Sequence record: NZ_CP086424.1
Direction: 5' to 3' (one strand)
DNA length: 64,000 bases
Source: a plasmid
Shown here: piece after piece, positions 50,601 to 56,600 of the stretch
Layout: every line of letters starts with the position of its first letter
Numbering within the stretch: the stretch's first letter is position 1
Program-made: the position numbers

Positions 50601-53600
50601 AGGCCACACGCAAGGCGCGGCGTGACGCGGATCGCCGCCAGCACCTCAAGACATCAGCTCGGCCGGACAAGCCCGTTCCGCCGGATACGGATATTGCCGA
50701 CCCGCAGGCAGACAACTTGCCACCCGCCAAACCGTTCGACCAGATTGAGGAGTGGTAGCCGTGGACGAATATCCCATCATCGACCTGTCCCACCTGCTGC
50801 CGGCGGCCCAGGGCTTGGCCCGTCTTCCGGCGGACGAGCGCATCCAGCGCCTTCGCGCCGACCGCTGGATCGGCTATCCGCGCGCAGTCGAGGCGCTGAA
50901 CCGGCTGGAAGCCCTTTATGCGTGGCCAAACAAGCAACGCATGCCCAACCTGCTGCTGGTTGGCCCGACCAACAATGGCAAGTCGATGATCGTCGAGAAG
51001 TTCCGCCGCACCCACCCGGCCAGCTCCGACGCCGACCAGGAGCACATCCCGGTGTTGGTCGTGCAGATGCCGTCCGAGCCGTCCGTGATCCGCTTCTACG
51101 TCGCGCTGCTCGCCGCGATGGGCGCGCCGCTGCGCCCACGCCCACGGTTGCCGGAAATGGAGCAACTGGCTCTGGCACTGCTGCGCAAGGTCGGCGTGCG
51201 CATGCTGGTGATCGACGAGCTGCACAACGTGCTGGCCGGCAACAGCGTCAACCGCCGGGAATTCCTCAACCTGCTGCGCTTCCTCGGCAACGAACTGCGC
51301 ATCCCGTTGGTTGGGGTAGGCACGCGCGACGCCTACCTAGCCATCCGCTCCGATGACCAGTTGGAAAATCGCTTCGAGCCGATGATGCTGCCGGTATGGG
51401 AGGCCAACGACGATTGCTGCTCACTGCTGGCCAGCTTCGCCGCTTCGCTCCCGCTGCGCCGGCCTTCCCCAATTGCCACGCTGGACATGGCTCGCTACCT
51501 GCTCACACGCAGCGAGGGCACCATAGGGGAACTGGCGCACTTGCTGATGGCGGCGGCCATCGTCGCCGTGGAGAGCGGCGAGGAAGCGATCAACCATCGC
51601 ACACTCAGCATGGCCTGTCGACAACCTCTCGCGCAACCAAGACATCGCGGTCGGACTGCAAGTGATCTTGAAGCCACGGGCCCGTCCCACCCCGACATGG
51701 ACCTCGATGCCCGAACGGACGTTAGATTTCGAGTTCTAGGCGTTCTGCGATGAAGGTTGGATCCCAGCCGGGATTGAAAGTGTCGACGTGGGTGAATCCG
51801 AGCCGCTCGTATAGGCCACGCAGGTTCGGGTGGCAGTCGAGCCGCAGCTTGGCGCACCCCTGCGTTCGCGCGGCATGGCGGCAAGCCTCGATCAGCGCGG
51901 AGCTGACACCCCGGCCCGCATGTGTCCGTCGCACCGCGAGCTTGTGCAGATATGCGGCCTCCCCCTTGAGGGCGTCGGGCCAGAACTCGGGATCCTCGGC
52001 CGACAAGGTGCAACAGCCGACGATGCCGTCGCTGCAACTCGCGACTAGGAGCTCGGATCTCAGGACGAAGGTCTCCGCGAATGTCCGGTCGATCCGCGCG
52101 ACGTCCCAGGCGGGCGTTCCCTTGGCGGACATCCACGCCGCAGCGTCGTGCATCAGCCGCACAACCTCGTCGATATCACCCGAGCAGGCGACCCGAACGT
52201 TCGGAGGCTCCTCGCTGTCCATTCGCTCCCCTGGCGCGGTATGAACCGCCGCCTCATAGTGCAGTTTGATCCTGACGAGCCCAGCATGTCTGCGCCCACC
52301 TTCGCGGAACCTGACCAGGGTCCGCTAGCGGGCGGCCGGAAGGTGAATGCTAGGCATGATCTAACCCTCGGTCTCTGGCGTCGCGACTGCGAAATTTCGC
52401 GAGGGTTTCCGAGAAGGTGATTGCGCTTCGCAGATCTCCAGGCGCGTGGGTGCGGACGTAGTCAGCGCCATTGCCGATCGCGTGAAGTTCCGCCGCAAGG
52501 CTCGCTGGACCCAGATCCTTTACAGGAAGGCCAACGGTGGCGCCCAAGAAGGATTTCCGCGACACCGAGACCAATAGCGGAAGCCCCAACGCCGACTTCA
52601 GCTTTTGAAGGTTCGACAGCACGTGCAGCGATGTTTCCGGTGCGGGGCTCAAGAAAAATCCCATCCCCGGATCGAGGATGAGCCGGTCGGCAGCGACCCC
52701 GCTCCGTCGCAAGGCGGAAACCCGCGCCTCGAAGAACCGCACAATCTCGTCGAGCGCGTCTTCGGGTCGAAGGTGACCGGTGCGGGTGGCGATGCCATCC
52801 CGCTGCGCTGAGTGCATAACCACCAGCCTGCAGTCCGCCTCAGCAATATCGGGATAGAGCGCAGGGTCAGGAAATCCTTGGATATCGTTCAGGTAGCCCA
52901 CGCCGCGCTTGAGCGCATAGCGCTGGGTTTCCGGTTGGAAGCTGTCGATTGAAACACGGTGCATCTGATCGGACAGGGCGTCTAAGAGCGGCGCAATACG
53001 TCTGATCTCATCGGCCGGCGATACAGGCCTCGCGTCCGGATGGCTGGCGGCCGGTCCGACATCCACGACGTCTGATCCGACTCGCAGCATTTCGATCGCC
53101 GCGGTGACAGCGCCGGCGGGGTCTAGCCGCCGGCTCTCATCGAAGAAGGAGTCCTCGGTGAGATTCAGAATGCCGAACACCGTCACCATGGCGTCGGCCT
53201 CCGCAGCGACTTCCACGATGGGGATCGGGCGAGCAAAAAGGCAGCAATTATGAGCCCCATACCTACAAAGCCCCACGCATCAAGCTTTTGCCCATGAAGC
53301 AACCAGGCAATGGCTGTAATTATGACGACGCCGAGTCCCGACCAGACTGCATAAGCAACACCGACAGGGGCAATGCCGTTGCCAGGCGTTTGTTGGCATG
53401 TTGGCTGCGCTCGGTTTCAACCCGCACCGACAGGCCGCTGGCGATGTGGGTCGCGCGGATGGCCGAGTCTGTGGTGTTCACGTGCTGCCCTCCTGCGCCC
53501 GAGGCGCGGCAGGCCTGAAAGTGGATTTGCTTATCCAGAGCCTTGTCATTGACCTCAAACATCTGGCCGCTGAAGAACCAGTTTTTGCGTTTGTGCCCGG

Positions 53601-56600
53601 GTCTGAAGCGGCTTTGGCAGCTCCAGAGCATGGCTCCCTGCCAAGACAGCGCCAAGTGCTTGGCCCGGGCTTCATCATTGGCACTGAGTTGCAGCAAGAC
53701 CGACTTGAAGCAGGCGACGCCGGTTTTAGCGTTTGCCTGAGTCACCTCCAACAACTCGCAGCCTATGCCTTGCGCCTGACACTCCCGCTCTATGGTTTGC
53801 ACCGCCAGGGCCACAGCGCGGCAGCATTCAATCGGGCCGGTTCCGGCCGACAGTTGCAGTAGTATCATCAGCAGCACTCCCCGTTGGTTTTGAAGGTCAG
53901 CACAGGGCGCAGCCTGGCAACAACCTCAATCAAACCGGCATCGACCATATCGCCAATCACAGTCGCACATTTTTTGTAGGCCTGGGGCGCTTCGTCATAC
54001 AGCAGTGTCTTGTTACCGCAGATCACCCGGCTTCCCAGGGCGGTGAGGTAGAGATCTTCACGGCGGAACTTGTGCGCCAGGCGGCCCTGACACTCGCCGC
54101 GCTGCCATTTTCTCCCGGCACCATGAGCCAGGGAAAACAGGCTGATGTCGGCGGCATCGCCCGCAGCGGCGCAGGGTTTCACCAGGTAGCTGTAGTCGCC
54201 GCGGGATCCCGGGATCACCACATAACCCTTATCGCTCGGGGTGGCGCCTTTTCGGTGCAGCCAGCCTTGGGTTCCGTTTATGCACTTGGGGGATACCAGA
54301 TTGTGGTTCACATCCAACACCAAGCTGCCAGAGCTGTTGATCGCTTCCAGGAAGCGACAGGCTATCAGCTCGCGGTTCAACTCAGCCCAGCGTAGCGCCT
54401 CATCGTGTTTGGCCAGATAGTCGCTGAACTCGCTATCTTCCGGACTCAGGCCTTGGTGGCTGTGGCGGCGGATATGTTCCTGCAAAATTGCCTGCCCCAG
54501 GCCTCTGGAGCCGGAATGCACCAGCAGTTGCAGATAGCGGCTGTCCAGCCCCAGCTCTTGCAGCGCCGCCTGGTCATAGACAGTTTCTATCGCTTGAAAC
54601 TCGGCAAAATGGTTACCGGCACCTATGGTGCCCAGCGCCTGGTCAAAGCCTGTGATGGCTATGCCTTTTTCCCGCTTGCGCTCGGCAATTGTTTGCGCCC
54701 AGGTTTCATCCAGAGGCTGTTCTATCTGTTTGAACTTGTTTGCCATCTTATCCAGCTTGACCTTGGATAGCTTCAGCGAGCTCTGCCACAGTGACATGCC
54801 GCAGCCAATGTCGTTGCCGACCAAGGCAGGATAGATTCTGTTGACGGCAAAAAACGCCGCACCAATGGGATAGCCTCTGCCGGGGTGCAGATCCGGCATT
54901 CCTGCCACGTGCTGCATACAGGCCAATTCAGAGGTTTTAATCAGTTGTTGTATTGCCAGCCCTTCTACCCAGGTTTCTTTGGATGCAATCAGGCTGACGC
55001 TTTCAGTAAGTTTTTGGACGGATCTGCCCATAGACCAATTCCTTTAAACAGGATTTAAACGATAAACGTATTGGCAGGCCAGTTGACCGAAGCGATAGCT
55101 TTACCAGAAAGCTATGAAATCAGTGGATAGCTTTCTGCTATTTAGCGGACAAGACCTGCAAAGGAGGTTGATGTGTTTTGCATGATGTTTTCTCCTCTAC
55201 AGTGAATGAATGGTGAGCGATGCGGGCGCATGGTAATCAGTTTGCCACCATAAGGCAAATATAAATTCAATCACTTAGCTTTATTTGCCGCCGAACCCTA
55301 TGGCAAGTGCGTCAGCTTGGGATTGCGGCCGGGGCAGCCGACCGCAGAAAGAGGCTACTGTTTCAGGCCATGATTTAAAGTCATGATTTAAAGTCATGAT
55401 TTGAAACCACACCAAGAAGCCGAGATAGAACTTTCACTTGCCGGGTTAAGGCAGCGGTTGGCGGGGCTTGGCCTTGTCACTTTTGCTGTGTGCCAGTTCA
55501 AGCACTTGTTCAAAGTCCAGACCATTAATCTTTTGCCCTATCAGGCCGAAGTCCATCTGGCCGTTGCGATCCGAGTGGTTCAGCGCTGCCAATGGGGTGT
55601 CGAACTCGGCCAGTTGGATTGCCAACAAGGCCATGACAAATTCCTGCTTGTCATGGGAGTTCAGCTGCGCCATGAGTCTGATGACATCCTGTTGGGTCGA
55701 CTCTGCACTGCTGCCGTCGAAGACTATGGTGTTGGGGGTAGTGCTGCAGGCCATCAGGCCGGTCAAAACGATAGCAATTATTATATTCTTCATGAGCTAA
55801 CTTCCGTTTTTTCGGTGTTCTACTTCCGTGCTGGCTTGTGATCGCCCTGTGGCATTCTCTCGAAGCGCCGCTGGTCTGGGGTACAGTTCCGGCCAACAGC
55901 AGTGTCAAGGGCACAGGCTCGGCAGAAGCGAATAATAAATTAAACCGCGACTCTAACAGTTTGAGATCAAAATTTTTTGAGTCGAGTCAAACAATTGACA
56001 TATAAGGAAAAGGTTTGATTTTTGTGAGGTGTCCCTGTTGCAACAGCCTTGGCCGCCCCTCTTCCTTGAGTCAATCTTTACAAACAGGTTACAGAATACC
56101 TCACCCTAAATAGGGCGACAAGTCATAGTGATCATTTATCCAACTTACCCAGATTGCAATCTTCACAAAGTATTTGCATGTTATTAATATCCAGCGCTTT
56201 GTGCGGGTACTTGCTGCGGGGCAAAATATGGTCTACATGCAGCACTATATTGTGTTCGGCTTTAGTGCGATTGCACTCTACACATTTGTGTTCGTGAGTT
56301 TGCAGCACCTGATATCTGAGTGCCAGCCAGGCTCTGGATTGATAAAAGTTATCTATGGTTTTGGGCTCGAACTCGCTGAGCTGCTCCGGATGCTCAAAGG
56401 CGCGGTGGCCGAGTTCGGGGGAAAAGAAGCTGGCCTGAATATCGGCCTTGTCCTGATGCTTGCTGAGCCATTTCCAAATGCCGCGCAGGGCACCTTGCTC
56501 ACTCTTGTAACGCCGGGTTCTTATGCTGTCTCCAGTGCGAAAAGTGACTTGGATTTCCAGTTCCATGGGCTTTTCTCCTGATAACAGGCTGTTGGTGGCC

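Follow-up and report, generated by a model that had tools for sequence, protein, structure and literature searches.

A ribosome-repair gene pair beside qnrA on an IncC-type plasmid is probably a broken passenger of an ISCR1 capture from Shewanella algae

Why should a resistance plasmid carry genes for the rescue and repair of cleaved ribosomes? The question is raised by a 64,000-nucleotide stretch of plasmid NZ_CP086424.1 (hereafter the window, whose positions serve as coordinates throughout; features lie on the minus strand unless stated otherwise), in which rtcB (55031..53868), a gene for a PrfH-associated RNA ligase of the RtcB2 type, is followed by prfH' (53320..53868), a 3'-truncated gene for release factor H, and then by qacEdelta1. 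A first-pass annotation had read the pair as a ribosome-repair module captured in an integron and had taken it to imply selection for toxin tolerance alongside antibiotic resistance. We conclude that the pair is very probably passenger DNA that hitchhiked with qnrA in a capture by ISCR1, its PrfH' being broken, and not a selected toxin-defence module.

The identities first given to the two genes are borne out by profile searches. RtcB (387 residues) matches NCBIfam NF007153 at 543 bits (cut-off 407) and TIGR03073 'release_rtcB' at 519 bits (cut-off 272), both at full length, covering 1–386, and also matches Pfam RtcB; its metal-binding and nucleophile motifs (NDIGCG, GNHF, HSGSRGLG, HN and HGAGRK) align to solved RtcB structures, and 382 of its 387 residues are identical to those of the chromosomal protein of S. 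algae. PrfH' (182 residues) matches TIGR03072 'release_prfH' at 208.7 bits (cut-off 166.65), over profile positions 1–162 of 200 only, and Pfam RF-1 over positions 9–64 of 116 only. The GGQ motif is kept at residues 126–128, within the stretch 121–130, and the surrounding SGAGGQHVN (123–131) is invariant in an alignment of 30 sequences, comprising the window product and 29 homologues. At the nucleotide level no other gene of the block differs from S. algae locus L090 as much as rtcB does (2.4% difference, versus 0.3–1.6% for the other genes including prfH').

The genes had been described as overlapping by 10 nucleotides, which follows from a mechanical open reading frame (ORF) start at GTG 53877. 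The start of prfH is ATG 53868, the methionine of MILLQLS, which is invariant as residue 1 in all 30 aligned sequences, and the overlap of rtcB stop and prfH start is a single nucleotide (TGATG), the same as on the S. algae chromosome. At the other end, a homologue search with the PrfH ORF returned the 211-residue 'peptide chain release factor H [Shewanella algae]', with which PrfH' is the same through L166 except for one substitution. The gene consists of 166 native codons (53868..53371) followed by 16 codons and a stop supplied by qacEdelta1 read out of frame (53370..53320). The out-of-frame run into qacEdelta1 had been recognised previously with a tail of 19 residues; the tail derived from qacEdelta1 comprises only the last 16, since T164, A165 and L166 are native to PrfH. 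Alignment with full-length homologues, which had been proposed as a check, leaves the C-terminus short by 45 of 211 residues with 16 unrelated residues in their place, and agrees with the earlier suggestion that the junction formed inside prfH and truncates it. Among the lost positions, 24 of the 45 are at least 90% conserved across the 30 homologues.

The consequences of this loss can be placed on the E. coli protein, as residue 166 of S. algae PrfH aligns with residue 160 of E. coli PrfH (PDB 7SA4) and the lost part corresponds to E. coli residues 161–204. By cryo-electron microscopy, E. coli PrfH comprises a GGQ domain (108–161) and an rRNA-recognition domain (2–98 plus 180–204) joined by two linkers, the second of which is part of a long helix (162–179), and its residues R181 and H184 contact C1914 of helix 69 (PMC9304027). 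Of these, PrfH' retains the GGQ domain and the N-terminal part of the rRNA-recognition domain; linker 2 and the C-terminal part of the rRNA-recognition domain, including the equivalents of R181 and H184, are lost. RtcB, the GGQ motif and the gene order with its overlap were all found as in an RtcB2-PrfH module, whereas a full-length PrfH was not. An AlphaFold2 model of full-length S. algae PrfH places helices at 156–178 and 181–195 followed by a terminal strand; we give it little weight (predicted local distance difference test score 68.5, and below 50 for residues 189–211). Nor does the lost part correspond to the dispensable extra tail of the Flavobacteriia subfamily, a tail situated past the portion in common with E. 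coli PrfH (PMC12829566). Domain and conservation analysis together indicate that PrfH' is most likely inactive, and hence that the two-step pathway of rescue followed by repair is most likely broken; the possibility raised in the first-pass annotation that the fusion happens to preserve function seems unlikely given the loss of linker 2, the C-terminal rRNA-recognition part and so many conserved positions.

The junction that truncates prfH lies between 53370, the last position of S. algae DNA, and 53369, from which downwards identity to the 3' conserved segment (3'-CS) of class 1 integrons is 100%. S. algae strains L092 and L093 read ...GGCAACGGCATTGC|TGTTTC at this point, where the window reads ...GGCAACGGCATTGC|CCCTGTCGG, and the junction could be pinned to the base using S. 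algae strains with a GCATTGC variant, which match the window through 53370; the sequence across it is GCCTGGCAACGGCATTGCCCCTGTCGGTGT. The qacEdelta1 remnant on the far side (53183..53369) is 187 bp long and, aligned with the complete qacEdelta1 of L094, is without the first 161 bp of the gene, such that prfH' is joined to nucleotide 162 of qacEdelta1. The same junction was found at the sequence level in loci L082 and L088, while the gene tables of L083–L085 give the same 182-residue product followed by sul1.

Upstream of the junction the window is S. algae DNA from 53370 to 61285, approximately 6.6 kb once the insertion sequence IS10 (57751..59062, plus strand) is set aside; IS10 is its sole interruption, and the segment is 97.5–98.8% identical to and collinear with 12 S. 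algae chromosomal loci. Its genes, by profile family, are in order a 79-residue ORF, a TrmO-like gene, SBP_bac_3, [IS10], qnrA, a 91-residue ORF, an HNH endonuclease, a 115-residue lipoprotein, rtcB and prfH'. In the 12 chromosomal loci, recovered by look-ups of two full-length proteins, the order TrmO, SBP, qnrA, 91, HNH, 115, RtcB, PrfH (211), Sel1 is invariant. That qnrA originates from S. algae is established (Poirel 2005, as cited in PMC7046756).

At its upstream end the segment abuts ISCR1 (61286..63439; transposase gene 63059..61518, 513 residues, orf513, Pfam Y2_Tnp and Zn_Tnp_IS91), which is 100% identical to annotated ISCR1. The end of the element, ...GGTTTATACTTCCTATACCC (also ...TATACTTCCTATACCC), which we take to be oriIS, meets S. 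algae DNA at 61286/61285, where S. algae homology begins, and in four other unrelated contexts 100% identity to the element ends at 61283–61286. Reading from the upstream side, the elements are 3'-CS1, ISCR1, S. algae DNA and 3'-CS2, in an IncC plasmid. ISCR1 follows a copy of the 3'-CS, foreign DNA begins at the oriIS end, the second 3'-CS is truncated at its 5' end and the chromosomal source of the foreign DNA can be traced. We identify the region as an ISCR1-associated variable region, of standard anatomy, in a complex class 1 integron. The earlier wording, that the pair had been 'captured in the integron', holds in this sense and fails in the sense of a gene cassette: the pair is not a cassette because it forms the distal end of a contiguous S. 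algae segment between ISCR1 oriIS (61286) and the partial 3'-CS2. It lies downstream of 3'-CS1 and ISCR1 within an eight-gene block of 6.6 kb, and the ends of the rtcB-prfH'-bearing segment are ISCR1 oriIS and truncated qacEdelta1; this placement is read from gene position, a formal attC search not having been made.

Look-ups of the exact RtcB protein placed it on no fewer than 24 contigs (67 index blocks), among them complete plasmids 171,849 and 132,404 bp in length. All of these contigs carry the same succession of ISCR1, (TrmO, SBP), IS10, qnrA, the 91-residue ORF, HNH, the 115-residue ORF, RtcB, PrfH of 182 residues, sul1, orf5, tniB, tniA and mer, and the identical prfH'-qacEdelta1 junction recurs in independent assemblies. 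Among 220 qnrA plasmids in PLSDB, none carries rtcB-prfH at high identity, the only matches to the pair in the plasmid collection being Ralstonia megaplasmids and a few others at approximately 66% identity, and this rtcB-prfH' was not found in 5,426 complete E. coli genomes. A scan of contigs from one genome per species with RtcB peptide words gave relatives of at most 75% identity and no S. algae, although many S. algae genomes have a gene that is 97–99% identical; in the S. algae species representative, rtcB-prfH is either missing or masked.

Related qnrA plasmids have shorter S. algae arms. Plasmids with qnrA3 have the same qacEdelta1 breakpoint (CCCTGTCGG...), with an S. algae arm that ends at the equivalent of window position 55082, approximately 1.7 kb earlier and 51 nucleotides before the rtcB start codon. 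In pECL-14-60-NDM-1-IncAC (L001, position 6271), for example, the rtcB leader and its upstream open reading frame (uORF) are fused straight to truncated qacEdelta1-sul1. The qnrA3 arms differ from the window by approximately 1.7%, and because of this divergence the two arms are not simple deletion derivatives of each other; the shared breakpoint suggests either that the same unit of ISCR1 and 3'-CS took part in two captures, or recombination. Plasmids with qnrA1 have a different breakpoint, approximately 260 bp past qnrA. A sister structure (L088, L089; Logan ERR1946960 and GCA_016513555.1) has the same rtcB-prfH'-qacEdelta1 junction and a mosaic qnrA, with 19 nucleotide differences from window positions 57092–57407 clustered in the 3' half and a protein two residues from QnrA1; beyond IS10 it carries a 308-residue beta-lactamase, GST, an insertion sequence and an AraC fragment adjoining ISCR1.

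The usual account of ISCR1 complex integrons is rolling-circle replication, and the layout of the window fits it. We propose that an ISCR1 element with part of a class 1 integron 3'-CS mobilised the 6.6 kb qnrA block of S. algae. A unit of ISCR1, sul1 and truncated qacEdelta1 would have landed in prfH on the S. algae chromosome; replication from oriIS would then have passed through the unit into prfH', rtcB, qnrA and approximately 2.2 kb further, and recombination between the resulting circle and a class 1 integron, in the 3'-CS, would have rescued it. The capture would be bounded by the ISCR1 oriIS end on one side and, on the other, by a point inside prfH after codon 166 of 211. IS10 would have inserted later, 50 bp upstream of qnrA and with its promoter pOUT facing that gene.

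The capture also took in the leader of rtcB (55142..55202), which consists of a 13-codon uORF and a hairpin predicted to sequester its Shine-Dalgarno sequence, with further alternative hairpins before the rtcB ATG at 55031. The uORF itself (55183..55142; peptide MQNTSTSFAGLVR and a stop) has the Shine-Dalgarno sequence GAGGAG and ends 110 nucleotides before the rtcB ATG. Pairing is possible between the Shine-Dalgarno arm CUGUAGAGGAG (55202..55192) and uORF codons 6–10, CUCCUUUGCAG (55166..55156); the leader pairing arm reads CCUUUGCAGG. The plasmid has kept this leader nearly identical to that of the S. algae chromosome; its fold has a z score of -3.4, with mutually exclusive predicted hairpins AAAGCUAU/AUAGCUUU/AAAGCUAU. 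A scan for consensus promoters and terminators upstream of rtcB gave nothing informative, and no U-tract terminator was found in either the S. algae or the plasmid leader.

We surveyed the leader in 80 rtcB loci (960 kb) fetched from other, marine gammaproteobacteria. A uORF of 11–16 codons lies upstream of rtcB in all 80, with a FAG-type motif in its frame in 78, and a uORF is also found in E. coli and Ralstonia. The 10-mer C[CT]TTTGCAGG occurs 72 times in the 960 kb, against approximately 3.7 occurrences expected by chance, and 64 of these (in 64 of the 80 loci) lie at most 350 nucleotides upstream of rtcB on the same strand. Five extra matches, 2 kb upstream of rtcB in the Pseudoalteromonas shioyasakiensis group, fall inside unrelated coding sequence. 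The near-invariant leader motif is CCUUUGCAGGUC, and within the leader CCTTTGCAGGTC is at least 92% conserved at each base while the adjacent codons vary; the GCA and GGT of the motif show no synonymous change, and one Alteromonas locus has the motif in another frame. Judged from this pattern of substitution, the conservation is at the nucleotide level and not at the peptide level. A conserved (S/P)FAGL peptide was rejected as the selected feature, GCA and GGT being without synonymous variation and locus L015, P. aeruginosa and E. coli using another frame; so too was mimicry of the 16S rRNA region that surrounds the colicin E3 site (GUAACAAGG / ACCUGC), a likeness that is short and of low complexity. 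In the predicted stem the leader motif pairs with the equally conserved ACUGUARAGGAG, which holds the Shine-Dalgarno sequence, over 10–11 bp with the AUG in the loop. Of 74 unique sequences, 66 can form the stem with at least 9 of its 11 pairs. The changes are mostly one-sided, so it is not proven by covariation, and RNAalifold returned no consensus structure from the alignment of leaders.

The closest characterised counterpart is PA5471.1 of P. aeruginosa, which controls armZ (RtcB-like) and PA5470 (prfH), ribosome stalling on the uORF relieving attenuation (PMC12057347, PMC13041342). The PA5471.1 leader could be compared as a partial sequence derived from primers, CCGCAAAGGAGGTTACATCGATGATTCAGTTCTCTACCCTTTGCAGGC, set against ACTGTAGAGGAG...ATG...CCTCCTTTGCAGGTC in the window; in the primer tables of a 2026 paper it reads CCGCAAAGGAGGTTACATCG ATG ATT CAG TTC TCT ACC CTT TGC AGG C, with the same two motifs. 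On this sequence comparison the window leader is homologous to the PA5471.1 attenuator, and because that leader senses stalling, the plasmid rtcB is probably inducible by translation stress. The intact E. coli rtcB2-prfH locus has the leader element as well; in Ralstonia it takes a 14-codon form with compensating sequence, and a terminator-like hairpin comes after it. The element is absent from Rfam and goes unmentioned in the papers searched on E. coli RtcB2-PrfH, and a 2025 review terms control by the leader peptide 'unique to MexXY'.

What, then, accounts for the presence of the pair? An error of assembly or annotation, in which prfH and qacEdelta1 were joined as a chimera across repeated copies of the 3'-CS, is scarcely credible: the 3'-CS is indeed repeated in the window (63440–64000 duplicates part of the second copy) and assemblers err at repeats, but the junction is identical in independent assemblies that include the two complete plasmids and a Logan assembly made from raw reads, the S. 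algae side of the join is unique sequence, and the qnrA3 plasmids share the qacEdelta1 breakpoint. Selection for toxin tolerance, which had been read into the locus, does not follow from it, because the two genes are natural chromosomal neighbours of qnrA in the donor (as in all 12 S. algae loci), because the 220 PLSDB qnrA plasmids lack them, and because the qnrA3 arms stop before rtcB. A working rtcB-prfH rescue module, taken up as integron cargo and kept by such selection with a harmless qacE-derived tail, is accordingly very improbable; while both genes score above their NCBIfam cut-offs, GGQ and the TGATG coupling are kept and the structure recurs in many assemblies, the protein lacks 45 C-terminal residues that include the linker helix, part of the rRNA-recognition domain and the 24 highly conserved positions. 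Moreover the pair is no cassette but part of a block, collinear with the S. algae chromosome, that runs from ISCR1 oriIS to 3'-CS2; its recurrence is explained by a single plasmid-borne structure that has spread with its junction unchanged, and sister structures exist without it.

Passenger status for the pair nevertheless has several points to answer. For the structural argument we relied on the domain limits described for E. coli PrfH by cryo-EM, the AlphaFold model being only moderate and too weak for a fold search, and the exact-match look-up favours copies in which rtcB is intact. The gene is wholly intact with all of its catalytic motifs and its native leader; every gene from IS10 pOUT through rtcB is on the same strand; overexpressed from a high-copy plasmid, rtcB2 alone restores colicin E3 resistance in E. 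coli (PMC9223846); and in vitro RtcB2 needs no partner to repair cleaved 30S and 70S ribosomes, a reaction that PrfH accelerates (PMC9223846, PMC13166195). There may therefore be a partial phenotype due to RtcB only, in which the intact ligase, expressed from its stall-sensing leader or by read-through from IS10 pOUT and qnrA, re-ligates 16S rRNA cut at A1493/G1494 and makes its Enterobacterales hosts partly tolerant of colicin E3, cloacin-type bacteriocins or CdiA-CT(ECL), host rescue factors or a chromosomal PrfH replacing the lost partner. We think this, the main alternative, distinctly unlikely. The far commoner qnrA1 and qnrA3 plasmids do without rtcB, and IncC plasmids are low copy. Protection by rtcB2 alone has been seen only under overexpression, and at native expression a single knockout of prfH is enough to sensitise E. 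coli ATCC 25922 to colicin E3 (PMC9223846); all published protection data come from the E. coli module. A bolder proposal, that the IncC lineage carries a functional, translation-stress-induced 16S rRNA repair ligase which without PrfH raises tolerance to colicin E3, cloacin DF13, CdiA-CT ECL and possibly ribosome-targeting drugs, and that the PA5471.1-like leader is the ancestral ribosome-damage sensor of all rtcB-prfH operons, we hold to be unlikely; the E. coli RtcB2-PrfH literature searched does not make this link between leader and operon. If the pair is a hitchhiker with qnrA, as we prefer, rtcB would still be intact because the capture is recent and damage has yet to occur, and not through selection.

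The gene with which the pair would have travelled, qnrA (57700..57044), encodes an allele two residues from QnrA3 (V54I, R161H) and five from QnrA1. No PLSDB plasmid carries this allele (best match 99.2%), and a look-up of the exact protein in a collection of 15 billion proteins reported it absent, though loci identical at the DNA level (L082) are present there. IS10 splits the S. algae homology with a 9-bp overlap, its target duplication being the 9 bp AGCGCTGCC; Rfam RNA-OUT was detected at 57779–57848 on the minus strand (98.8 bits), and pOUT/RNA-OUT faces qnrA, which lies 50 bp away. This copy of IS10 is 1312 bp long versus 1329 bp, with 17 bp of the outside-end inverted repeat deleted (CTGAT|TGGTAAAA versus the canonical CTGATGAATCCCCTAATGATTTTGGTAAAA in L097), and it is probably immobile on account of this outside-end deletion. 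A context of qnrA6 in P. mirabilis with IS10 and two copies of ISCR1 was reportedly described by Jayol in 2016; the window allele is a candidate qnrA6.

Other features of the window complete the picture. Within the captured block, the HNH endonuclease gene occupies 56566..56132 and that of the 115-residue lipoprotein 55793..55446, and between the latter and the rtcB leader lies a perfect 13-bp tandem repeat, CATGATTTAAAGT x 2.6 (55369–55402), of which the S. algae chromosomal copies are slightly diverged. The sul1 gene of 3'-CS2 was taken from the ORF list (52350..53189) and is 100% identical to the 3'-CS of several plasmids; downstream of it, according to the gene tables of identical loci, come orf5 (GNAT), a tniB remnant, tniA and mer. 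Upstream of ISCR1 the window ends within the 3'-CS1 copy, of which it holds the 3' part of sul1 (63440..64000); the fragment 64000..63440 is an exact duplicate of the second-copy sul1 sequence and matches positions 10146–10706 of locus L082. Over its first 24 kb the window shows 100% identity to conjugative plasmid backbones of the IncC type.

If our reading is correct, the structure should not be cited as evidence that resistance plasmids recruit defences against bacteriocins, being a long ISCR1 capture that chances to break prfH. No other structure compared has so long an S. algae arm linked to qnrA, and here both ends of the arm are defined to the base, which aids reconstruction of how ISCR1 mobilised qnrA. 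It also means that an intact RtcB2 with its native regulatory leader is now present in clinical Enterobacterales. Finally, a leader of the PA5471.1 type, characterised only in P. aeruginosa, has its nucleotide sequence conserved ahead of rtcB-prfH in both gamma- and betaproteobacteria, among them the E. coli operon of the colicin E3 work, and this conservation suggests how repair operons may sense damage to the ribosome.

In its leader the window resembles the PA5471.1-armZ-PA5470 operon of P. aeruginosa, with the same operon layout and a uORF of approximately 13 codons, and with GCAAAGGAGG ... CCCTTTGCAGG there corresponding to CUGUAGAGGAG ... CUCCUUUGCAGG here. It differs in the frame of the uORF relative to the conserved motif and in that the S. 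algae and plasmid leaders are without an evident U-tract terminator; and in P. aeruginosa ArmZ has gained an anti-repressor role towards MexZ. In its genes it resembles the RtcB2-PrfH module of E. coli (ATCC 25922; PDB 7SA4), sharing the TIGR03073 and TIGR03072 families, the operon order, the overlap of stop and start, the GGQ motif and a homologous leader. However, PrfH' corresponds to E. coli PrfH only as far as residue 160 and is without linker 2 and residues 180–204, and the pair sits on a conjugative resistance plasmid and not on a chromosome. The ykfJ-prfH remnant of E. coli K-12 is likewise a naturally broken module, and gives no protection against colicin E3 (PMC9223846; PMC1586002); there the 3' portion of rtcB2 and the 5' portion of prfH are missing through a deletion of approximately 1 kb, whereas in the window rtcB is whole and the 3' end of prfH is replaced by foreign codons.

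Taken as a whole, the region belongs with the ISCR1-qnrA complex integrons (the qnrA1 regions of In36/In37 type and the qnrA3 and qnrA2 plasmids), which have the same 3'-CS1, ISCR1 oriIS, S. algae qnrA DNA and truncated 3'-CS2; no paper in the literature searched contains both 'qnrA' and 'rtcB'. Compared with these known regions, the S. algae arm of the window is 2.2 kb longer upstream, where it includes TrmO and SBP, and downstream it is approximately 1.7 kb longer than that of the qnrA3 plasmids and exceeds that of qnrA1 by more; it takes in rtcB and 166 codons of prfH, and has IS10 upstream of qnrA. It is thus a new and longer example of a class already known, the ISCR1-captured qnrA regions.

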